DNA of 64,000 nt, taken from positions 16,536 through 80,535 of the forward strand of contig CAXEOX010000001.1 in assembly GCA_963997925.1 (NCBI GenBank). Direction: 5' to 3'. Within the stretch, counting starts at the first letter, position 1; every line of letters begins with the position of its first letter. Made by a program: the position numbers and the translations under genes. Shown piece by piece: positions 518 through 34,827 of this stretch. The notes below the pieces were generated by a model. It did no database searches. It was given only the letters and a program-made list of their open reading frames with translations, and was not told where the DNA came from. This DNA comes from an uncultured bacterium. Lineage in GTDB: Bacteria; Chloroflexota; Dehalococcoidia; Lucifugimonadales; UBA3495.

Positions 518-1180
518 TTGTACTCCCCAACACAAGCAGCAACCCTGATCGACGCCCTGCTGCCCACAAGCCAACTGAACCGCCGGATAGCCAGGGACGT
601 TCTACTGATTGTAGGGTTCAGTTTGTTCACCGCCTTGATGGCCCGTTTCGTCATCCACCTGTCCTTCACCCCGGTGCCCATCACCGGCCAGACGCTGGCG
701 GTGCTGTTGACCGGAGCGACTCTAGGCAGCCGTCGCGGCGCAGCGGCCCTCGCCCTATACCTGGTGGAGGGTAGTGTGTTTCCGGTCTTCGCCGGCGGCA
801 GCGGAGCGGACTTTCTCTTTCAGGCCAACGCGGGCGGATACATCTTTGGCTTTTCCTCGGGCTCGGCCGGATTAGTTTGGAATCTTGCCTCGGGCGGGTA
901 CATCATCGGCTTCATCCCGGCGGCGTTCGTCGTCGGCTACCTATGCGAACGGGGCTGGGACCGCCGGGTGTGGATCCTCCTAGCCATGGGCGCAGGCAAC
1001 ATCGTTCTGTACATCCCCGGCCTGATACAACTGTCATTATTCGTGCCCAACGATAAGGTGCTGGAGTTCGGATTGTATCCCTTCATCTTTGGGGATCTGG
1101 CCAAATTGTACGTCGCGTCTCTGGCGGTGCCTTCCGCTTGGGCCTTGGCCGGCAGGTTGGGCGGCAAGCCAGGCGATTAG
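518..1180 (+). CDS. bioY: Biotin transporter BioY (solitary ECF S-component type)
   Basis: 220-aa polytopic membrane protein with the BioY signature block TPVPITGQTLAVLLTGATLGSRRGAAALALYLVEG. It has a TTG start with the RBS AGAGGAGG 5 nt upstream. Confidence 0.8.
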   Translation: MYSPTQAATLIDALLPTSQLNRRIARDVLLIVGFSLFTALMARFVIHLSFTPVPITGQTLAVLLTGATLGSRRGAAALALYLVEGSVFPVFAGGSGADFLFQANAGGYIFGFSSGSAGLVWNLASGGYIIGFIPAAFVVGYLCERGWDRRVWILLAMGAGNIVLYIPGLIQLSLFVPNDKVLEFGLYPFIFGDLAKLYVASLAVPSAWALAGRLGGKPGD

Positions 1181-1200
1181 ACCTTGTCCGGGTTGGCCTG

Positions 1201-2478
1201 ATGAATCAACAACGAAGGCAGGATGGCGTCGACACAGGCGGTAACACGGCTTCCCGGCGCCGGTCCGGTCTGCAAACTTTCTCATCTCTTAAAAGCATCG
1301 ACTTTCGACTGCTATGGGCCGGGAGTATCTTCGATAACCTGGCCCTATGGCTCCAGTTCATAACCTTGAGTTGGATGGTGTGGGACCTAACCGAATCAGC
1401 TTCCCTTTCCGGCGCGGCTGCCGGACTGCGGGGGCTCCCCACCTTGGTGATTGGACCCTGGGCGGGGGTGATTGCCGACCGCATCGACCGGCGCAAGCTG
1501 GTCATTGTCCTCCAGATATTCCTCGGTGTTGTGGCCGTTTTCTTCGCCAGCATGGTAGCTACCGGCTCAGCCCAAGTCTGGCACGTATTCGCATACGCTT
1601 CGGTATCGGCGGTCTGCTTCGCATTTATCATGCCGGCCCGGCAATCCCTCATCGCCAACACGGTGCCCCCGGAAAACATGGGCAACGCCTTCGCTTTAAG
1701 CGCCATGACCGTCACCGTGAACCGTCTAGCCGGAGGATTGTTGGGAGGATTGCTAATCACCACCGTGGGGATACAGTGGAACTTCTTCGTCGAAGCCGGA
1801 GCCTACATCGCCACCGCTTTGCTGTTGATTCCGATGAAGACTCCCTACCAGCAGGCATCGACCGCCCGGTTCACGTCGGTCTTGGCGAACTTCAAGGACG
1901 GGTTCAGATACATCTGGCGAGACAACCGGATAATCCTGCACCTGATTGTCCTGGGAATTATATTGAATGTGGTATTCATCCCCGTGCCGGCCCTGCTCCC
2001 GCCTTACGCCAGCACCGTGCTGGGCGCCAATGCCAGCGTCGGAGGATACCTCTTGGCGGCTCAGGGTGTCGGAGGCATCGCCGCCACCGTTGCCATCGCG
2101 TCTCTGGGATTCGTCATCTACAAGGGGAAGCTGGGGCTGATATGCCTGGTTCTGGGGTCGGCGGCGGTCCTTGTACTGGCCCAGTCCCATTGGCTGGCCC
2201 TATCCATAGCAATGCTGATTGTGCTGGGGATCTCCCAGTCCACCTTCATCGTCAGCACCCAGACTCTGATCCAATCCATGACGCCCGACACTCTACGGGG
2301 CAGAATCACTAGTATCTACATGTTAGAGTTCGGATTGGGTCCTATCGCCATCGTATTGATTGGGCTTTTGATGGATCTAACCACCGTGTCCGGCGCGCTG
2401 ACAATCGTCGCGGCGGTCAGCTTGACCCTATCTCTTCTGTTTTTAGTTACATTCAGACAGGTCAGAGGATTGGCGTAA
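1201..2478 (+). CDS. MFS transporter (MFS_3 / EntS-like subfamily)
   Basis: About 12 predicted TM helices. The N-terminal block FRLLWAGSIFDNLALWLQFITLSWMVWDLT...ADRIDRRKL is typical of MFS_3. I chose the ATG at 1201 (MNQQRR) rather than the track start at 1138, which overlaps bioY. Confidence 0.8.
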   Translation: MNQQRRQDGVDTGGNTASRRRSGLQTFSSLKSIDFRLLWAGSIFDNLALWLQFITLSWMVWDLTESASLSGAAAGLRGLPTLVIGPWAGVIADRIDRRKLVIVLQIFLGVVAVFFASMVATGSAQVWHVFAYASVSAVCFAFIMPARQSLIANTVPPENMGNAFALSAMTVTVNRLAGGLLGGLLITTVGIQWNFFVEAGAYIATALLLIPMKTPYQQASTARFTSVLANFKDGFRYIWRDNRIILHLIVLGIILNVVFIPVPALLPPYASTVLGANASVGGYLLAAQGVGGIAATVAIASLGFVIYKGKLGLICLVLGSAAVLVLAQSHWLALSIAMLIVLGISQSTFIVSTQTLIQSMTPDTLRGRITSIYMLEFGLGPIAIVLIGLLMDLTTVSGALTIVAAVSLTLSLLFLVTFRQVRGLA

Positions 2479-2504
2479 CCGGGAACCACCGGAGGAATGG
2501 AGAT

Positions 2505-3908
2505 ATGAGCGACCCCCCTTTGCATTACCTGACTATCACCGAAGTCGCGTCCTTGATCCGCGACAAGCAGGTTTCCCCGGTGGAAGTGACCGAAGCGATG
2601 CTCCAGCGAATCGATGCGCTGGACGGTCGATTCCAGAGCTACGCAACGGTGATGGCGGACCAAGCGATGGATTCGGCCAGAAAAGCGGAGATTGAGATTT
2701 CCGCCGGAGGCTACTTGGGTCCTCTGCACGGCGTGCCCATCGCGGTGAAGGATCTTTGCTTCACTAAAGGCGTCCGCACCATGGGCGGTACACCGGTGCT
2801 ATCCAATCACGTTCCAGATTTCGACGCTACGGTTATCTCCAAGCTGGCGGCTGCGGGCTCGGTCCTGCTGGGCAAACTGAACTTGACCGAGGGAGCGATG
2901 GCCGGATACCACCCTGACTTCCCGATCCCGGTCAACCCGTGGAACCCGGAGTATTGGACCGGCGTATCGTCCAGCGGCTCCGGAGTAGCCACCGCCGCCG
3001 GGCTTTGCTTTGGATCTCTGGGCAGCGACACCGGCGGCTCCATACGGTTTCCCGCGGCTTCCTGCGGTATCGTCGGTATCAAGCCCACATGGGGATTGGT
3101 CAGCCGCTACGGAGTTCTGGCCCTGGCCGAGTCCATGGACCACGTCGGCCCCATGACCCGCAGCGCCGCCGACGCCGGTATCATGCTTCAAGCCATCGCC
3201 AGCCACGACCCCAACGACGCAACCTCTCTGCCCAGACCTGCACTCGACTTGTTGGCGGGACTGGGAGAGGGTGTAAGTGGCATTCGCATCGGCCTGGACC
3301 TTCGGTATATCGAGGACGACGTTGACGGCGAATTATCAGCGTCGGTGTTGGCGGCCATCCGAGTGATGGAAGTGCTGGGCGCGGAGATTGTCGAGGTGAG
3401 CATGCCCGAGACCCGCGAATATACCGGAGCTTGGGCGGTGCTATGTTCCGCCGAAGCCGCCGAAGCCCATCGCGCGACCTATCCGTCACGCCGGGACGAG
3501 TACGGCCCCTGGTTCCGGGGCTGGCTGGACAAGGGCTCTGAAGTAACCGGCTCGGATTATGCCCAGGCCAACAACGTGCGCGCGGAGTGCAACGGTCTGC
3601 TTCGAAGCGTGTTTGAAGATATAGATGTGCTGGCGTGTCCCTCAACAATCGCCCCACCGGGCCGGGTAACCCCGGAGCAATTGCGCGCTCCCATGGGAGG
3701 CGAAGACGACCTGAAGTGGGGCCGCTTCACCGTTCCATTCGATTTCAACGGCGCTCCAACCATTTCCCTGCCCTGCGGCCAGAACAGCGACGGTCTGCCT
3801 CTAAGCCTCCAGTTCGTAGGAAAGCACCTATCCGAGGCGTTGCTGGTCAGATTAGGCCACGCCTATGAACAAGCAACAGACTGGCGCAACATGAGACCGC
3901 CAATGTGA
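2505..3908 (+). CDS. Amidase (amidase-signature family, GatA-like)
   Basis: The catalytic Lys lies in PIAVKDLCFTKG. The Gly/Ser-rich AS block is GVSSSGSGVATAAGLCFGSLGSDTGGSIRFPAASCG. Confidence 0.85.
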   Translation: MSDPPLHYLTITEVASLIRDKQVSPVEVTEAMLQRIDALDGRFQSYATVMADQAMDSARKAEIEISAGGYLGPLHGVPIAVKDLCFTKGVRTMGGTPVLSNHVPDFDATVISKLAAAGSVLLGKLNLTEGAMAGYHPDFPIPVNPWNPEYWTGVSSSGSGVATAAGLCFGSLGSDTGGSIRFPAASCGIVGIKPTWGLVSRYGVLALAESMDHVGPMTRSAADAGIMLQAIASHDPNDATSLPRPALDLLAGLGEGVSGIRIGLDLRYIEDDVDGELSASVLAAIRVMEVLGAEIVEVSMPETREYTGAWAVLCSAEAAEAHRATYPSRRDEYGPWFRGWLDKGSEVTGSDYAQANNVRAECNGLLRSVFEDIDVLACPSTIAPPGRVTPEQLRAPMGGEDDLKWGRFTVPFDFNGAPTISLPCGQNSDGLPLSLQFVGKHLSEALLVRLGHAYEQATDWRNMRPPM

Positions 3909-4845: not shown

Positions 4846-7044
4846 TCATTCAGACTCTGAATCGTTGGTATCTTCATCGCCGGTATCGCCATCGCCGGTA
4901 ACTTGGTCATCAGCTTCTAAATCTTCAGTGCCGGCATCGTCGATTTCTTCGTCAACAATCTCTTCGCCGTCGATCTCTTCTTCATCAGGCTCTACTTCGA
5001 GCACCGGTGGGCGGGACTGGCTTGGGTCTCGCCAAAATTCCACCAACCGGGAAACTTCCCCATCGTCCACGAAGGTTCCTTGGACTCGCCGGGGTTGGGG
5101 CGACTGATTTTCCAGCAGGAGCATATCGCCCCTCCCCAGAAGATCTTCGGCCCCAGACACATCCAGAATCACTCTGGAGTCGGTCTGGGACGCCACAGTA
5201 AAAGCGATGCGGGTAGCGATGTTGGCTTTGAGCAAGCCGGTAACCACGTCCACGGTCGGCCTCTGGGTAGCCAGCATCAAGTGGATACCTGTTGCCCGGC
5301 CCATCTGAGCCAGCCTCACCAGATTCGCTTCGGCCTCTCGGCCACCGGCCAGCATGAGTTCCGCCAATTCATCAACCACCAACACCACGTAGGGCATCCT
5401 TCTCTCGGCGGTGGCGTTGTAGCCGGCGATGTTGCGCGCCCCGGCCTCCGCCAACCTGGTGTACCGTTGCTGCATCAAACTCAACAAGCCCTTAAGCGAT
5501 TCGGTGAATCCTTTGAATTCCTGAACGGTGGGGGCAGCTAGGTGCGGCAGCCCATCGAAGGGCGTCAGTTCCACTCCCTTGGGGTCTACCATCAATAGAC
5601 GCAATTGATCCGGCGATTTCGACACCAGCAGAGAGGCCACGATGCTGTTGAGGCATACACTTTTGCCCGTGCCCGTGGCTCCGGCGATGAGCAGATGAGG
5701 CAGTCCTGCCAGGTCCAACACCTCCGGCTCGCCAGCGATGTCCAAGCCGATCGCGATGGGCAAGCCTCCCTTGGCGGCACAGTCAACAAAGGCTTGGGAT
5801 TCTACCACCTCTTTCAACCCAACTCTCCTCGGTGTGGGAGAGGGAACCTCCAGCCCCACCAACGACTCACCCGGGATGGTGGGTTGGATCCTGATTGTAG
5901 GAGTCTTGAGCGCAAGGGCCAGGTCGTTCTGCCGAGCCAAGATGGCTTGGACCCTAACCCGGCTCCTCCCGCCAACGCCGCCGTCTTGCTGTTCATCCGA
6001 GCCGCCCTTGTCGTCAGTCAACCAGCCCGGGTCGAGACCGAAACGATTGAGCCGGGGTCCGGACTGGATGCTGGCGTCGGGAACCGTTACGTTCGCGCCA
6101 TAGCTGGCCAGAGTGTCCTCGATGAGACGGGCGGTGGCTATCAGGGCCTCTTCGTTGGACTCGACCGGTTCCGGAGCAGTCAGCAGGTCTGCGGCAGGCA
6201 ACAGCCAAGGCGGATTCGAGACCGAGCTAGGGTCGACAGGCTCGGCATATAGAGATAACTCTTCGCTGACAAAGCCATCGATGGCGGATATCTCGCTCCT
6301 GGTATCCGGCTGGACTTCCGGAACCACCTCCTGTTGGTCGGGCGGATTATCCTGGACGGGTTTATCTTCAGCTACCGCCGTTGCCGTCGATTCTACGGCA
6401 GGCGGCTCAGGGGTTGGCACAGGAGTCGATGCTGGGATGCTTGGCTGCTCAGTGTCTTTTGTCCGAGACTTTAGCCTTTGCGCTATGGCTCCCCTGAACC
6501 GTTTCAGAAGCGGGTGTTCGGCCACGAACCGCGCACTTTGGCCTACCTGCTCGAAGGCCCGAGCGTACAAGGGGCCAACCCTCCTTGGAAACACCACCAC
6601 CGGCATCAAGACGGCTATAATCACCAACTTGGCGATGCCCAACGACAGGGGTGCACCGCCCAAGATTGTTCCCCACCGGCCGCCCAGACTGACATCTGCG
6701 AAGATCCCGAAGCCGGGGTGGAAGAAGGAGAGGACACCGACGGCGATGGCGGCCCCGGCGGCAGCGGTCACCCACCATTGCCACTGACGTGCAAAGAACC
6801 TGATGTGGTAGCGCAAGCCAAACACCAGAGCACCAAGCCACAGCCCCACCGGCGCCCAGCCGTAGGCTAGGGACTCCAGAGCCCATGTCCGAGCGGACGG
6901 GCTCAAGAACATGGTGATGGCCAAGGCTAACACGGCGGTGACTAGGACCAACCCATCTATGACAAACGCTATCCGCACCGGGCTGGACTTACCGCCGGAC
7001 CGCGAACGAGAGGAACGGCGTCTGCCTTCAGGGTTACGTGCCAC
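4846..7044 (-). CDS. ftsK: DNA translocase FtsK/SpoIIIE (no recognisable gamma domain; poly-acidic C-terminal tail)
   Basis: N-terminal TM helices are followed by a Pro/Glu-rich linker. The motor domain has Walker A LLIAGATGTGKSVCLNS, Walker B VVLVVDELAELM and LATQRPTVDVVTG. The start is GTG with the RBS AGGAGG 5 nt upstream. Confidence 0.9.
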   Translation of the reverse strand: MARNPEGRRRSSRSRSGGKSSPVRIAFVIDGLVLVTAVLALAITMFLSPSARTWALESLAYGWAPVGLWLGALVFGLRYHIRFFARQWQWWVTAAAGAAIAVGVLSFFHPGFGIFADVSLGGRWGTILGGAPLSLGIAKLVIIAVLMPVVVFPRRVGPLYARAFEQVGQSARFVAEHPLLKRFRGAIAQRLKSRTKDTEQPSIPASTPVPTPEPPAVESTATAVAEDKPVQDNPPDQQEVVPEVQPDTRSEISAIDGFVSEELSLYAEPVDPSSVSNPPWLLPAADLLTAPEPVESNEEALIATARLIEDTLASYGANVTVPDASIQSGPRLNRFGLDPGWLTDDKGGSDEQQDGGVGGRSRVRVQAILARQNDLALALKTPTIRIQPTIPGESLVGLEVPSPTPRRVGLKEVVESQAFVDCAAKGGLPIAIGLDIAGEPEVLDLAGLPHLLIAGATGTGKSVCLNSIVASLLVSKSPDQLRLLMVDPKGVELTPFDGLPHLAAPTVQEFKGFTESLKGLLSLMQQRYTRLAEAGARNIAGYNATAERRMPYVVLVVDELAELMLAGGREAEANLVRLAQMGRATGIHLMLATQRPTVDVVTGLLKANIATRIAFTVASQTDSRVILDVSGAEDLLGRGDMLLLENQSPQPRRVQGTFVDDGEVSRLVEFWRDPSQSRPPVLEVEPDEEEIDGEEIVDEEIDDAGTEDLEADDQVTGDGDTGDEDTNDSESE

Positions 7045-7184
7045 GCAATCCTCCTAGACTTAGCTGGCTCGGTCAGTTCCGCTCGACAACGCGCCAGCTA
7101 AAAGCCAGCCGAGTCTTGCTTAACGGCGAGTATAGTTTCGCCCTACCGGAATATCAACGAAGCAGTCGACTACCCGGACTAGTT

Positions 7185-8189
7185 CTACTCAAAGAACAAT
7201 TTCTGGGCACTGCCACAGCAGATCAACTGGTACTCCGCCGGCTCAAAACCGGCTTCGCGCACCGGCTCCGTCAAGGGTTGGGGCGTGCCGGAGAACACAT
7301 AGTCCGACCCGAGCATGATGTGCTCCGCGCCAGCGACGTTCCGCAGCATCCGCAGGGAGTCCGGGGACATGTTCACCGTGTCGTAGTAGAGCATCTCCAG
7401 GTAGTCCGACGGCTTGTCGCGTTTCAGTTCCACGGGCCTTCCCGCGCCACTGCGATACCCGTTGTCGATGCGAGCGGCCTGGTAGGGAAGGAACCCTCCG
7501 CCGTGGACCAATACCATTTTCAGGTTGGGATGCCGGTCGAAGAGACCCTCAAGTATCAGCTTTGCCGCAGTTATTGTTGTATCCAAGGTGCGGCCCAGAC
7601 TGAAGGTCAGGTAGTTGGGCGTTATCCCACCGCCAAACCCATGGGTAGCCGGATGCAGTACGATCGGCACACCCAGGCTTTCCGCCGCCGCCCACAAGGG
7701 TTCGTAGCTGTCCTGCGACAAATCGTGCCCCACCGGGTCGGCGGACACCATGGTGCCCAGCATGCCCAACGTGTTCACTGCGTACTCCAGTTCCTTCGCC
7801 GCCATGGTCCCGTCCTGGATCGGCACCGTGGCCAAGCCCCGGAAGGTATCGCCGTTCGATCCCACAAGTTCAGCCAGGTGCTCATTGAACAGTCTGGCCC
7901 ACGTGGCAGCTTTGTCCGGGGAAAGGGTGTATCCGTGGATGTCCAGCCATGACGCTAGGATCTGCTGATCCAGGCCCTGGGTAGTCATCCACTCCAGACG
8001 GGGCTCAAGTTGGGCCAAGCCGCCCAGTGGCCGGAGCTGGACCAACCCTTCGAACTGGAGTGCGGGTCCCCGGTCGGTGTCCTCCACCGTCACGCCCAAA
8101 CTCTTCCCGCTGGTCCTTGCCTCATCGACCAGACCGGCCGGAACGATGTGGGCGTGGCTATCGATGAACTGTTCTTTCTGAGTGCTCAT
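7185..8189 (-). CDS. Amidohydrolase-2 family protein (ACMSD-like metal-dependent hydrolase/decarboxylase)
   Basis: The N-terminal FIDSHAHIVP motif, ...VLHPATHGF... and ...MLGSDYVF... follow the PF04909-type pattern. The RBS GAGGAGGG lies upstream of the ATG. Confidence 0.75.
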   Translation of the reverse strand: MSTQKEQFIDSHAHIVPAGLVDEARTSGKSLGVTVEDTDRGPALQFEGLVQLRPLGGLAQLEPRLEWMTTQGLDQQILASWLDIHGYTLSPDKAATWARLFNEHLAELVGSNGDTFRGLATVPIQDGTMAAKELEYAVNTLGMLGTMVSADPVGHDLSQDSYEPLWAAAESLGVPIVLHPATHGFGGGITPNYLTFSLGRTLDTTITAAKLILEGLFDRHPNLKMVLVHGGGFLPYQAARIDNGYRSGAGRPVELKRDKPSDYLEMLYYDTVNMSPDSLRMLRNVAGAEHIMLGSDYVFSGTPQPLTEPVREAGFEPAEYQLICCGSAQKLFFE

Positions 8190-8341
8190 GATTTCCCTCC
8201 TCGCTCTTGAGCCATATCATATCCCCCTCGAAGCTAGCGTGCCAACGGACTTCGTAGACTGCCGTCCCCCATCAGTCGCCCAGACAACGGCAGCAAGCCA
8301 TCTAATGAGACCCGCAGATAGAGAAAACGGCTTTGGCGGCG

Positions 8342-8812
8342 ATGTTGGCTGGATCTAAAAACAGAAACTCAGGAATCTACGTCCTGATATTCCACTTGTC
8401 CAACGACGTAACGATGACAATAGGAAAGCGTGGTGAGCTTGATTTCCAAAGCGGTTGGTATGGCTACGTCGAATCTGGAAAGTCCGGAGTAGAGGCGCGG
8501 GTTCGCCGCCATCTACGGACCCACGACCGCCCCCATTGGCATCTCGACTACCTGATGCACCTAGGCAAACCCACTACCGCCATCATCGGCCACACTGAAG
8601 AATCGTTGGAATGCCCTCTGGTCCGCCACTTGGAGACAATATTCCTGGTGGTTCCACGGTTCGGCTCCAGCGACTGCCGCTGCTCAAGGCACTTATTCCA
8701 CAGCCCGGAACAATCGTCATTGGAAAAAGCGGCGTTGCAAGGTATGACGGCGTTGGGTTGTACGCCGGTGCCGATTCAGGTTGATTGGATCTGGGACACC
8801 GAGGCAAAGTGA
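8342..8812 (+). CDS. GIY-YIG nuclease superfamily protein (DUF123-like)
   Basis: It has SGIYVLIF..., ...GWYGYVES..., RVRRHLR...HWHLDYL and ...RFGSSDCRCSRHLFH, which I recognise as the DUF123 pattern. The start is uncertain (TTG 8333 or ATG 8342). Confidence 0.6.
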   Translation: MLAGSKNRNSGIYVLIFHLSNDVTMTIGKRGELDFQSGWYGYVESGKSGVEARVRRHLRTHDRPHWHLDYLMHLGKPTTAIIGHTEESLECPLVRHLETIFLVVPRFGSSDCRCSRHLFHSPEQSSLEKAALQGMTALGCTPVPIQVDWIWDTEAK

Positions 8813-31332: not shown

Positions 31333-31610
31333 CTATGGAGTGTTGACTTTGGGAGCAGCAGGGAGCCGGACCCAGAAACCTAACCCTGCGTTAAATCAGC
31401 CCGCATTATAACAACCCTACCGGCCTTAGGTTAGGAACGCATCCTGGGATCGGATTCAGAAGGCTTCATTACCGCCTCTTCGATCGGAATCCAACGTAAT
31501 TGACCCATCTTGGCAGCCTTGCTAGAATCCGTCCGACACAGGCAGACCTTCCCAGGGAAGGCTGCCGCTCCCCGGAGCAGGCCCGGAAGCCGGCGATAAG
31601 GAGAAGTATC

Positions 31611-32756
31611 TTGGTTGAAACATGGGGCACCATAGACAGTTCCGCGGAAGTCGCGACAACACACATCGGGGTGAACGTCTACACCTACGACGCCTGGATG
31701 CGGTCGGTGGGGATTCCCGTGCACACCGGGTTCTTCATTTCCGACCTCCGGACCTTGGAGTTAGAATGGTGGGAAGACCGGGGCTGTAAAGCCGCTTTCA
31801 TCCAATTAATGGGACAGGAAGGAATCATCGAAGCCCGCGTTAGTGAGATTCCTCCCGGCGAGTCCTTGCCCCCTCTCAAACTGTCGGTAGACGAGGTCGT
31901 TTACGTCGTCGAGGGTCAAGGCCTGACCAGCGTTTGGGGAGCAGAAGACTCTCGGCGGCAGACGGTAGAGTGGCAGAAACATAGCATCTTTCTGCTGGAG
32001 CGGAACCGCTACCACCAGTTCAGCAACACACGGGGGGATCTCCCCGTCCGGTTGCTGCATTACAACTACCTGCCCTTGGCCATGTCCACCATCCCAGACC
32101 CAGCTTTTTTCTTCAACAATCCTTACGACGCCCCGGAATCTGCAGGTGGAGAGTTCTACTCCGAAGCCAAGGCCGTGCCTAGGGCCGACCGGCGGGGCCG
32201 CCGGGGATTCCTGTGGAGAGGCAACTTCTTCCCGGACATGCAGAGCTGGGACCAGTTGGACAGCAACGAAACAAGGGGAGCGGGCGGTCACAGCGTCTAC
32301 ATCCAATTCCCCGGCTCGGAGATGTCTTCCCACATGTCCGTGTTCGCCCCTCAACTTTACAAAAAGGCGCATCGCCACGGCCCCGGCCGGGTCATAGTCA
32401 TCCCGGCGGGTGAGGGCTACACCATCCTGTGGGAAGAGGGCAAAGAAAAGATTGTCGTGCCCTGGCAGGAAGGCAGCGCTCTGGTCCCGCCCAACCGGTG
32501 GTTCCACCAGCACTTCAACGTCGGCGGCTCCAAGGCACGATACCTGGCCCTCCATCCGCCACGCCAGTTCCACGGCTACACCGACGAGTCGGTGGGAGAT
32601 TTGTCCAACGATCAGATCGAATACGTTGATGAAGAGCCCTGGGTACGCGAGAAGTTCGAGGAGGAACTGGCCAAACACGGCGTGACCAGTCTCATGCCCG
32701 ACGAAGCCTACAAAGACCGAGACTACCAATGGGATTACCGGACGGCAGCTCAATAA
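31611..32756 (+). CDS. Bicupin protein (second cupin carries an HxH...H metal site)
   Basis: Cupin 1 is IPPGESLPPLKLSVDEVVYVVEGQG, with no His ligands. Cupin 2 is YKKAHRHGPGRVIVIPAGEGYTILW...PPNRWFHQHFNVG. I chose the TTG at 31611, 7 nt after the RBS AAGGAG; the track start at 31500 has no RBS. Confidence 0.6.
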   Translation: MVETWGTIDSSAEVATTHIGVNVYTYDAWMRSVGIPVHTGFFISDLRTLELEWWEDRGCKAAFIQLMGQEGIIEARVSEIPPGESLPPLKLSVDEVVYVVEGQGLTSVWGAEDSRRQTVEWQKHSIFLLERNRYHQFSNTRGDLPVRLLHYNYLPLAMSTIPDPAFFFNNPYDAPESAGGEFYSEAKAVPRADRRGRRGFLWRGNFFPDMQSWDQLDSNETRGAGGHSVYIQFPGSEMSSHMSVFAPQLYKKAHRHGPGRVIVIPAGEGYTILWEEGKEKIVVPWQEGSALVPPNRWFHQHFNVGGSKARYLALHPPRQFHGYTDESVGDLSNDQIEYVDEEPWVREKFEEELAKHGVTSLMPDEAYKDRDYQWDYRTAAQ

Positions 32757-32778
32757 GTTACCGGGAGAATTAAGCTTA

Positions 32779-34344
32779 ATGGACCACGACGAATTCGAAG
32801 ACGGCCTTCACGGTCACAGCCATAGCCATGACAATTTCCCCGACGACCCTCACGACGATCTGGACGACTTCGGTGACGTTGGCGAAGCGGTGGAAATTGA
32901 AGGCATGGAGATGCTCACCATTCGCAGTGTGGGCATCGATATAGGCTCATCCACGTCGCATCTGGTGTTCTCCCAACTGGTACTGAGAAGAGAAGGGGCT
33001 GCGTTTTCCAGCCGGTTCCGGGTAACTGACCGGCAGGTCTTATACCGCTCTCCCATCATGCTGACGCCCTACGTATCCGGAACGTTGATCGACACCGACA
33101 ACATTCGGGAGTTCGTTCGCCAGTCTTACGAGGAAGCCGGATTCACCCCGGAAACCGTGGACACGGGGGCGGTGGTAATCACCGGAGAGGCACTGAAGAA
33201 GGAGAACGCACGGCCCATCAGCGAGCTTTTCGCCAAGGAGTCGGGCAAATTCATCTGCGCGTCCGCCGGACCCAACCACGAAGCATTGCTGGCGGCCCAC
33301 GGGTGCGGAGCGGTGGCCCTATCCAAGGATGAAAGCGCCACTGTCCTAAACATCGACGTGGGCGGCGGCACTACCAAGTTGTCCCTGATACGTAACGGCG
33401 TGGTGACAAGCACTGCTGCCGTCACCGTTGGCGCACGGCTTATCGCCTTCGATGAAGAGAACCAGATAACTAGGCTGGAGGAGCCGGCATTAGACCTGCT
33501 CAATGAAATAGGCCGGATCTTAGCCGTGGGGCGAGCCATCAGCGAATCCGTGAAAGAAGACTTCGCCGCCCGCATGTCCGAGATTCTCGCCTTGGTGATT
33601 CGAAACGCTCCCCTGACCGGGATCGCTGAGCGCTTCCTACTTACAGACCCACTGGAAGACTATCAGGGTCCCTCTGAAGTTGATTATGTCGTGTTTTCCG
33701 GCGGCGTGTCCGAGTACATCTACGACCACGACGCAGCCTCCTACGGAGACCTGGGTCCCCAGTTCGCCCGCCACATCCGCGAAAGCCTGAAAACCGTGTT
33801 CAAAGAAGGGGTAGTGCGCGAAGCCTCTGAAGGCATCCGGGCAACGGTCATCGGGGCCGGGGAGTACACGGTGCAAGCCAGCGGCGGCACCAGCCATCTG
33901 TCCGGATTGGACTCACTTCCGGCTTTCGGGCTACAGGTGGTGCGCCCTTACATGAACGGTCAGGAGTCGGTGGAGCGGGCGATTCAGAGCGCCCTGGCCA
34001 AGTTCGATCTAACCGAATTCGCCCCCGGATTGGCCCTAGCCCTGGAAGTTGAAGAGCCACCCAACTACCGCTCCCTGAAAAGACTGGCCGACGGTATCTC
34101 CTCCGTGGTCAACAACGGCGACGCTACAGATGTCCCGGTGTTCATAGTTCTCGATACCGACGTTGCCAAGTCCCTTGGCGGCATCCTGAAAGAGGAACTG
34201 AAGCTGAGCCAAGACGTGGTGGTGGTTGACGGCATAGACGTGGGAGACCTGGACTACTTGGACATCGGCCTGCCAATGGGCATATCCGAAGTTGTTCCGG
34301 TGACGGTTAAGTCGCTGATATTCCCCACGAAAGAAGAGCGTTAA
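32779..34344 (+). CDS. EutA-family (ethanolamine ammonia-lyase reactivase-like) ASKHA-fold ATPase with a His/Asp-rich N-terminal tail
   Basis: SVGIDIGSSTSHLVFSQLVL...SPIMLTPY...DTGAVVITGEALKKENARPISE...ICASAGPNHEALLAAHGCGA...VLNIDVGGGTTK aligns block-for-block with E. coli EutA as I remember it. The N-terminus is MDHDEFEDGLHGHSHSHDNFPDDPHDDLDDFGD. Confidence 0.8.
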   Translation: MDHDEFEDGLHGHSHSHDNFPDDPHDDLDDFGDVGEAVEIEGMEMLTIRSVGIDIGSSTSHLVFSQLVLRREGAAFSSRFRVTDRQVLYRSPIMLTPYVSGTLIDTDNIREFVRQSYEEAGFTPETVDTGAVVITGEALKKENARPISELFAKESGKFICASAGPNHEALLAAHGCGAVALSKDESATVLNIDVGGGTTKLSLIRNGVVTSTAAVTVGARLIAFDEENQITRLEEPALDLLNEIGRILAVGRAISESVKEDFAARMSEILALVIRNAPLTGIAERFLLTDPLEDYQGPSEVDYVVFSGGVSEYIYDHDAASYGDLGPQFARHIRESLKTVFKEGVVREASEGIRATVIGAGEYTVQASGGTSHLSGLDSLPAFGLQVVRPYMNGQESVERAIQSALAKFDLTEFAPGLALALEVEEPPNYRSLKRLADGISSVVNNGDATDVPVFIVLDTDVAKSLGGILKEELKLSQDVVVVDGIDVGDLDYLDIGLPMGISEVVPVTVKSLIFPTKEER

Positions 34345-34372
34345 AGGCGTTAACCCAAAAGGGAGGAATAAC

Positions 34373-34753
34373 ATGGATATCATCCGCCGCGACTACCCCG
34401 ACCTGCCCCAACCAGCCGGGGCATTCCACCATTCGGTCCGCTGGGGCAACATGCTCTTCATAGCGGGCAGCACCGCCAGGGGCACCCCCGCCGAGAAGGG
34501 AGACATCGCCGCCCAAACTGAGGTGATTCTCCAGAAGTTTCAGACGATATTGGAGGCCAACGGCGGGTCTATGAGTAGCATCGTCAAAGTCACCAGCTTC
34601 GTCACGGACCTGCGGGAAGCAGCCGCCAGCGGCGAAGTCCGGCGCGAGTATTTTAAAGACGGCTTCCCGGCCAGCACTCAAGTGCAGGTTGCCGCTTTGG
34701 GGACGCCGGATATTAAGATAGAGATAGAGGCCATCGCCATACTTCCCGAATAG
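34373..34753 (+). CDS. RidA / YjgF / endoribonuclease L-PSP family protein
   Basis: This 126-aa protein reads PAGAFHHSVRWGNMLFIAGSTA...IVKVTSFVTD...FPASTQVQVAALG...IEIEAIA. The RBS is GGGAGGAA. Confidence 0.85.
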   Translation: MDIIRRDYPDLPQPAGAFHHSVRWGNMLFIAGSTARGTPAEKGDIAAQTEVILQKFQTILEANGGSMSSIVKVTSFVTDLREAAASGEVRREYFKDGFPASTQVQVAALGTPDIKIEIEAIAILPE

Positions 34754-34798
34754 GGCGAGGGATTGTTCCGGGTATCAGGGCTCCATCACCAGCGTAGG

Positions 34799-34827
34799 GG
34801 CAGGTTTGAAACCTGCCCCTACATCGT
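34799..34827. terminator. GTAGGGGCAGGT hairpin (family 1) between convergent genes
   Basis: GTAGGGGCAGGT-TTGAA-ACCTGCCCCTAC has a 12-bp perfect stem. It lies between the ridA-like gene (+) and the lipoprotein gene (-). Confidence 0.5.

Follow-up and report, generated by a model that had tools for sequence, protein, structure and literature searches.

Conserved pairing of a bicupin with an EutA-like ATPase in uncultured Chloroflexota, a candidate module for metal-site maturation or reactivation

Gene layout and conservation of the pair

The 64,000-nucleotide stretch of DNA analysed here (the window), from an uncultured bacterium of the Chloroflexota (Dehalococcoidia, Lucifugimonadales), contains three co-directional genes on the plus strand. 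The first (31611-32756) encodes a protein of 381 amino acids (aa) with two cupin domains, a bicupin; the open reading frame (ORF) has a TTG start with AAGGAG 8 nucleotides (nt) upstream. The second (32779-34344) encodes an EutA-family ATPase (Pfam PF06277) of 521 aa with the ASKHA (acetate and sugar kinase/Hsc70/actin) fold, and the third (34373-34753), assigned by ORF and Pfam, a Rid-family (YjgF/L-PSP) protein of 126 aa without the catalytic arginine of RidA. With intergenic gaps of 22 and 28 nt the ORFs are exactly as first described in a sequence-only reading of this DNA, which had proposed an enzyme and activase module of all three genes. The source is a marine metagenome-assembled genome (MAG) of the Dehalococcoidia/SAR202 type with 3.54 Mb, 95.5% complete, whose nearest public relatives are marine Dehalococcoidia/Chloroflexota MAGs. 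The conserved unit is the bicupin with the EutA-like ATPase, without the Rid gene, and the ATPase may serve the metal site of its neighbour.

Adjacency, phyletic co-occurrence and co-diversification support the EutA-like ATPase as a conserved partner of the bicupin. Among 41 relatives, both genes were present in the same 8 genomes and adjoined each other. A scan of one genome per species yielded 341 relatives of the bicupin, of which 79 loci were retained; an EutA-like gene adjoined the bicupin in 21 of these 79 bicupin-seeded loci. The loci with adjacent pairs belonged to Chloroflexota, Binatia, 'Deltaproteobacteria', Acidiferrales and Acidocella, often with the order bicupin-EutA-bicupin. 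The converse survey collected EutA-like genes with the Pfam EutA model from 301 Chloroflexota genomes, blind to cupins, and scored the neighbours with hidden Markov models built for the purpose; three genomes flagged as unpublished (G298, G078 and G202) counted in the denominators only and contributed no positive loci. Twenty-three of 36 EutA-like genes directly adjoined a same-strand bicupin and four had one within 1.1-2.2 kb. Four neighboured a Rieske/LigXa-type oxygenase, and five neither (one of these adjoined a different double-Cupin_2 protein).

On the genome level, 13 of the 301 genomes held both families according to the Pfam EutA model and the bicupin profile, one held the bicupin only and none the EutA-like gene only. 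The 13 genomes span seven taxonomic families; the bicupin-only genome is 88% complete. The three genomes with an EutA adjacent to eutB had no bicupin. The two families also diversified together: in a comparison of 44 adjacent pairs, ATPase distances and bicupin distances correlated with a Mantel r of 0.83, a value reached in 0 of 2000 permutations, and the partner of the nearest EutA-like protein was the nearest bicupin in 23 of the 44 pairs.

An apparent fusion of bicupin and EutA in G066, contig C60 (open frame of 1215 aa), was rejected, as it consists of two genes in different frames. Two copies look decayed. In G021 (C14, 202722-204937) an EutA-like gene interrupted by two TAG stops in frame adjoins a bicupin fragment comprising residues 274-380 only, and in G066 (C53, locus L105, 4026-5621) an EutA-like gene is split in two frames.

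A promoter-like site on the plus strand (31500-31528; TTGACC, 17-nt spacer, TG-TAGAAT), a consensus match only with 10 of 12 positions, lies 83 nt 5' of the bicupin start. Metatranscriptome contigs from four studies of marine and hydrothermal-vent samples matched the locus at 99-100% identity. These contigs span all three genes and bridge both junctions (for example X1, 32431-33854; X3, 32649-33187 and 34164-34755; X2, 34296-34820), which is compatible with co-transcription; contigs from RNA libraries cannot show transcript start, strand, level or one single transcript, and carry-over of DNA is possible. Contig starts at 31567-31623 are compatible with the promoter-like site, no proof of it. 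Just 3' of the Rid gene, a stretch of about 34 nt (34793-34826) stands out in all four RNA libraries: its summed depth is very high, and many unrelated contigs have loose ends there. It resembles a multi-copy element of the REP type, common to many organisms or loci.

The EutA-like ATPase and its distance from true EutA

The ATPase matched Pfam PF06277 with residues 48-515 (E 3.8e-121, model positions 3-474 of 475) and aligned over the full length with EutA of E. coli (b2451; 33% identity, E 1e-73). The alignment with EutA recognised from the letters alone was borne out, and public databases annotate the protein as EutA. It stayed below all four NCBIfam equivalog cut-offs for EutA, with a best score of 348.8 versus 598 bits (NF007992). 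At E 1e-10 at least 7,976 homologues were found, true EutAs included, and no PDB entry matched by sequence at an E-value of 0.01 or below.

The actin-fold core comprises residues 46-370 (32914-33888, plus strand), or 45-370 in an AlphaFold2 (AF2) model with a predicted local distance difference test score (pLDDT) of 78. In the model a two-lobed ASKHA core is followed by the EutA-specific C-terminal domain (residues 371-521; 33889-34341, plus strand), which aligns full-length with E. coli EutA. The nucleotide-binding motifs are intact: phosphate-1 DIGSST, phosphate-2 DVGGGT and adenosine SGGVSE. Residues D54, G56 and T59, D193 and G195-T198, and S307-E312 were invariant among 37 EutA-like ATPases (alignment A2), hence the phosphate-binding motifs, whose state had been named as worth checking, are preserved across the bicupin-linked clade. 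The closest folds were Ppx/GppA (Z 19.2-15.5), FtsA, activators of the BcrAD/HgdC type (Z about 15; HgdC-type 4eht, 15.0) and the diol-dehydratase reactivase DdrA (2d0o, Z 12.1); all of them leave the C-terminal domain uncovered.

The core is preceded by an N-terminal tail of 45 aa (32779-32913, plus strand), rich in histidine and aspartate according to alignment and composition (6 His, 17 Asp/Glu). It is disordered in the AF2 model (pLDDT <50, residues 1-43) and ends in a conserved (E/D)(I/V)EG(L/M)E linker. Among close homologues, 113 of 117 had at least three histidines in the tail and 116 of 117 an EDIEGLE-type linker; the median tail has 31 aa with 12% His and 35% Asp plus Glu. Seventy-two of the 117 begin with MH and 15 have a histidine at position 3, while the window protein starts with MDH. 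The majority of the divergent EutA-like paralogs that are paired with divergent bicupins retain such a tail. EutA of E. coli and the eutB-linked EutAs of Chloroflexota have none and begin directly at the ASKHA motif.

An ethanolamine context is missing. Profile searches of the whole source genome gave no match to EutB (PF06751), EutC (PF05985) or the bacterial microcompartment (BMC) shell family PF00936, which extends the earlier statement on the 64-kb window to the genome; PF06277 is represented by one gene. EutB was also not found in two other genomes with the module, G155 and G066. In the 301 Chloroflexota genomes the Pfam EutA model recovered three full-length true EutAs with 528-542 bits (G332, G145 and G109), all abutting eutB. 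The remaining EutA-like hits scored 350-430 bits, the window protein 406, with 1-6 copies per genome. Weaker hits were obtained as well: PF06277 matched proteins in the control genomes of Thermus, Deinococcus, Caulobacter and Bacillus, and Chloroflexota hits of comparable strength (27-36 bits) were ORFs of about 410-440 aa covered by a short stretch of the model only. These Chloroflexota hits are read as cross-hits to other actin-fold proteins.

A quick IQ-TREE tree of 62 EutA-family proteins separated four eutB-linked EutAs (E. coli and three Chloroflexota) from 58 EutA-like proteins by a long branch with full support in the Shimodaira-Hasegawa-like approximate likelihood ratio test (SH-aLRT 100). 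The EutA-like side comprises four old subclades, each dominated by bicupin-adjacent genes. The window protein belongs to this separate clade; the grouping with bona fide eut-operon EutA, which the sequence-only reading had considered fatal to its proposal, was not observed. The lack of eutBC in the genome and the position in a clade apart from eutB-linked EutA support the view, drawn from sequence comparison, that the EutA-like ATPase is not an ethanolamine-lyase reactivase. Neither EutA homologues outside eut operons nor a pairing of bicupin and EutA were the subject of any paper found in the literature search. Hits for 'EutA homolog' concerned the unrelated EutA of ectoine metabolism and were discarded.

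The bicupin, its metal site and its surroundings

Pfam recognised in the bicupin only one Cupin_2 domain, residues 78-149. This N-terminal barrel (31842-32057, plus strand; Pfam and alignment) is devoid of histidine ligands at the motif positions, in agreement with the sequence-only reading, and its conserved residues are Y98, G102, G104, E120 and W121. The second cupin had been credited with a full histidine site (KAHRH...WFHQHFN), and the alignment confirmed it: H241, H254, H256, H299 and H301 are invariant among 44 family members. Y250, K251, K252, N303 and R310 are invariant in the same 44 sequences, and all lie in the C-terminal cupin. The putative metal centre (32331-32519, plus strand; alignment) thus consists of H241, Y250-K251-K252, H254-R-H256 and H299-Q-H301-F-N303.

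The AF2 model of the bicupin (pLDDT 85) was most similar to gentisate and salicylate 1,2-dioxygenases (GDO and SDO) when structures were re-ranked by VIA: 3bu7 reached Z 21.6 (root mean square deviation, rmsd, 6.0 over 277 residues), 2phd 21.4 and 2d40 20.3 (rmsd 2.9 over 236 residues), generic or unrelated bicupins not more than 19.6. Foldseek, unlike VIA, returned generic bicupins only (oxalate decarboxylase, MncA, vicilins) with a template modelling (TM) score of about 0.45. The sole significant match of the bicupin profile (A1) in the PDB was again 3bu7, a gentisate dioxygenase (E 3e-8), restricted to one cupin. The C-terminal cupin of 3bu7 (GDOsp) carries the same KAHRH / WxHxHxN signature, written 'kahrh...wtwhehcn' in the profile alignment. 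Among the curated models, NCBIfam MabB (5-aminosalicylate 1,2-dioxygenase, NF049978) matched with 16.9 bits against a cut-off of 650, and a search of the ESM Atlas led to unnamed or 'cupin' clusters only. Judging from the predicted structure, the bicupin is closest to the structural class of the gentisate/salicylate 1,2-dioxygenases, in which it would be a remote member.

The family is strongly expanded in some Chloroflexota. Genomes G155, G128 and G066 contained 56, 38 and 31 bicupin matches at E 1e-10 or better, facing 5, 4 and 5 EutA-like copies, respectively, and the bicupins are probably among the largest enzyme families of these genomes. A literature search found nothing on this family. 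The source genome has a second full-length bicupin on another contig (G000, C10, 8618-9748), 58% identical to the window copy; no EutA-like gene was seen next to it, and the single ATPase of the genome may serve both.

Recurrent neighbours of the module were Rieske/LigXa oxygenases, Amidohydro_2 proteins, UbiD decarboxylases, luciferase-like monooxygenases and solute-binding proteins. Rieske was the commonest Pfam family, with 10 members in 144 module-flanking ORFs. The four EutA-like genes next to a Rieske/LigXa oxygenase (L116, 5658-6959; L117, 1779-3866; L115, 5899-7215; L134, 5102-6340) comprise two same-strand and two divergent arrangements. Where informative, the surroundings point to aromatic catabolism. 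Only one SAR202 paper mentioning cupins was found; it counts gentisate-type dioxygenases and mentions no ATPase (PMC6123686).

Other settings were observed. In loci of Binatia, 'Deltaproteobacteria' and Acidiferrales (L021-L028, L033) a bicupin-EutA-bicupin trio directly follows atpC of the F1Fo ATP synthase operon; next comes an EamA transporter, DUF4197, a NUDIX protein, a B12-binding radical-SAM gene or mnmE. The atp genes are read as conserved synteny of a housekeeping operon, not as a functional link; this setting is a housekeeping one, unlike the catabolic setting in Chloroflexota. In L094 the genes around a divergent bicupin-EutA pair (932-3436 and 6227-8649) encode a doubled family-III CoA-transferase, an MFS transporter and a class-V aminotransferase, which suggests a substrate class other than that of the Rieske-linked pairs.

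A maturation or reactivation module and its relation to known systems

We propose, with roughly even confidence, a two-component module in which the EutA-family ATPase acts as ATP-driven maturation or reactivation factor of a non-haem metal oxygenase-like bicupin. The first component would be the bicupin with a mononuclear metal centre, formed by a 3-His site (H254, H256 and H299) at the canonical cupin positions, with H241 and H301 in addition. Its most likely reaction would be an O2-dependent cleavage or modification of a hydroxylated aromatic acid. The second component would be a dedicated ASKHA ATPase that diverged from the reactivases of B12 enzymes and gained a His/Asp-rich tail resembling metal-binding segments. 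In analogy to EutA, DdrAB and His-tailed metallochaperones, the ATPase would bind the bicupin, open the site upon ATP hydrolysis and either load it with the catalytic metal, Fe(II) or Ni(II), or replace that metal, by which the bicupin would be matured or reactivated. EutA and DdrAB use ATP to release a dead cofactor. The helper role is inferred from the homology to cofactor-exchange ATPases, the tail and the approximately tenfold excess of bicupins; physical binding, the identity of the metal and the substrate are likewise inferred. The sequence-only reading had already envisaged that an EutA-like factor, driven by ATP, loads or repairs the active site of the cupin enzyme; this remains the best reading of the pair and has gained from the clade-wide presence of the tail.

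The identity of the metal may be approached from two sides. Fe(II) is suggested by analogy with gentisate dioxygenases and with the Rieske partners, Ni(II) by the tail of the ATPase, and nickel found no support in the neighbourhood sample or the source genome. The client range may be wider than bicupins, because the Rieske partners share with them only a mononuclear non-haem metal site. Extending the proposal further, the bicupin-linked EutA-like proteins may constitute a new class of ASKHA-fold metallochaperones or reactivases, in which Ni(II) or Fe(II) is held by a HypA-like N-terminal MH(D/E)/His-rich handle, ATP hydrolysis opens the bicupin barrel for insertion or replacement of the metal, and Rieske oxygenases are perhaps also serviced. 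This extension is tentative and we would sooner expect it to fail than to hold.

A prediction of the complex of bicupin and ATPase, as suggested by the sequence-only reading, gave a median interaction prediction score from aligned errors (ipSAE) of 0.60 versus 0.00 for the best control; the partner pLDDT was 70 or more, and the runs agreed in 34% of the contacts or more. The calibration set comprised 80 solved complexes, 58 of which reached the mark, and 110 mismatched pairs, 2 of which did so; among those that reached it, only 7 of the 80 solved complexes, together with both mismatches, had values of 0.60 or below.

Several observations weigh against the proposed module. The support from the complex prediction is weak. 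The Mantel correlation of 0.83 is inflated by shared organismal descent, and restricting the comparison to paralogs within genomes left no significant co-divergence (r 0.32, p 0.17). The metal site resides in the C-terminal cupin, while canonical gentisate dioxygenases, which are 3-His Fe(II) enzymes, use the N-terminal one; for this reason dioxygenase chemistry of the bicupin is an analogy only. The majority of bicupin paralogs lack an ATPase next to them. Four EutA-like genes stand beside Rieske oxygenases, which indicates either a wider client range or an adjacency caused in part by shared pathways. Tails rich in His and Asp are not specific to chaperones. No metal transporter was among the 25 most frequent Pfam families of the 144 flanking ORFs, and the source genome contained a NicO match below the threshold only, located on another contig, and no match to HupE/UreJ.

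The strongest competing explanation, though an unlikely one, assigns catalysis to the EutA-like protein: as subunit of a heteromeric enzyme it would activate the substrate with ATP, by phosphorylation or carboxylation in the manner of ASKHA enzymes of the hydantoinase/acetone-carboxylase type, and one or more bicupins would process the intermediate. Tight adjacency and the frequent order bicupin-EutA-bicupin suggest such a multi-subunit enzyme, the co-diversification of the families fits it, and the nearest folds of the ASKHA core, Ppx/GppA, are phosphotransfer enzymes. An obligatory subunit is disfavoured because bicupins, which keep an identical metal site, are about ten times as numerous as the ATPases of the same genomes. 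Moreover, the nearest sequence family is a reactivase and not a kinase, the disordered His/Asp tail has no obvious role in the phosphorylation of a substrate, and some EutA-like genes adjoin Rieske oxygenases instead.

The Rid gene leads to a second alternative, part of the sequence-only reading: the substrate of the bicupin would be an amino compound, and a reactive enamine or imine product would be quenched by the Rid protein. The arrangement would resemble the 2-aminomuconate or 5-aminosalicylate pathways, in which ring cleavage is followed by a Rid-family deaminase. The position of the Rid gene 28 nt downstream of the ATPase gene, the RNA-library contigs across this junction, a Rid-family 2-aminomuconate deaminase among the PDB matches (6izh, E 9.5e-12) and the faint MabB match of the bicupin agree with this idea; that last score is far under its cut-off. 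The protein is a member of the Rid/L-PSP fold family (Ribonuc_L-PSP PF01042, E 1e-25; PDB matches down to E 2.5e-19), as had been recognised. RidA proper it is not: it scored 79 versus 106.25 bits required by TIGR00004, was also below the PRK11401 cut-off, and has a serine at the catalytic arginine, which we take to be Arg105 in E. coli RidA numbering ('PAS' aligned to 'PAR' of three solved Rid proteins). Neither is Rid conserved with the module. Of about 60 module loci, three from the same genus (L014-L016) have it linked to the pair, and one other (L077) has it on the opposite strand. Because Rid is not part of the module and lacks the imino-deaminase arginine, an amino substrate receives no comparative support; informative neighbours are aromatic-catabolic. 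We therefore consider this alternative improbable and treat the Rid gene as a genus-specific passenger outside the mechanism. It is scarcely conceivable that the protein is a genuine EutA for an adenosylcobalamin enzyme encoded elsewhere, be it ethanolamine ammonia-lyase or another B12 eliminase or mutase, with the bicupin as unrelated neighbour: the full-length homology, the Pfam match and the public annotation that speak for it are opposed by the failure to find EutB and EutC in the 95.5%-complete source genome or EutB in G155 and G066, the scores below the NCBIfam cut-offs, the separate clade and the fact that EutA-like genes never occurred without the bicupin family in the 301 genomes.

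The annotation matters beyond this locus. Thousands of database proteins bear the name 'ethanolamine ammonia-lyase reactivating factor EutA', and a large clade of them is, as found here, unrelated to ethanolamine or B12; metabolic reconstructions of uncultured groups, SAR202 and Binatia among them, are misled by the label. Should the ATPase have the proposed helper role, it would be the first factor with an ASKHA fold to be devoted to a mononuclear metal oxygenase, and the reactivase principle, so far one of B12 and radical enzymes, would come to include cupin enzymes. The bicupin family, with 31-56 copies in some Chloroflexota, is located among aromatic-degradation genes and is for this reason relevant to the use of recalcitrant aromatic carbon by bacteria of the deep ocean and of soils.

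Compared with known systems, the bicupin resembles gentisate and salicylate 1,2-dioxygenases in its fold, in the HRH...WxHxHxN histidine signature and in the aromatic-catabolism genes around it. It differs in the location of the histidine site, with an N-terminal cupin emptied of His, and the likeness is a distant one: sequence identity is merely 12-15%, no curated GDO model matches, and the structural lead over generic bicupins amounts to about 2 Z units. To our knowledge, no GDO needs an ATPase. Insertion of a mononuclear metal by an ASKHA-fold metallochaperone is likewise not known to us. The nickel metallochaperones HypA, HypB, UreE and CooJ have His-rich segments or an N-terminal MHE motif, to which the His/Asp-rich, often MH-initial tail of the ATPase is comparable. 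The nickel site of HypA is formed by the N-terminal MHE motif (PMC7055735); the window ATPase begins with MDH instead. A linkage to genes for metal uptake or sensing, nickel or iron transporters included, was not seen for the module in the neighbourhood sample. The ASKHA core resembles those of DdrA and the HgdC-type activators. Closest is EutA itself, homologous over the full length of core and C-terminal domain and with conserved nucleotide-binding motifs. The EutA-like ATPase departs from it by the His/Asp-rich tail and linker that true EutA lacks, and by having a bicupin or sometimes a Rieske oxygenase as partner in place of eutBC and a B12 context. What both likely share is the logic of an ATPase dedicated to keeping the cofactor site of one partner enzyme working.

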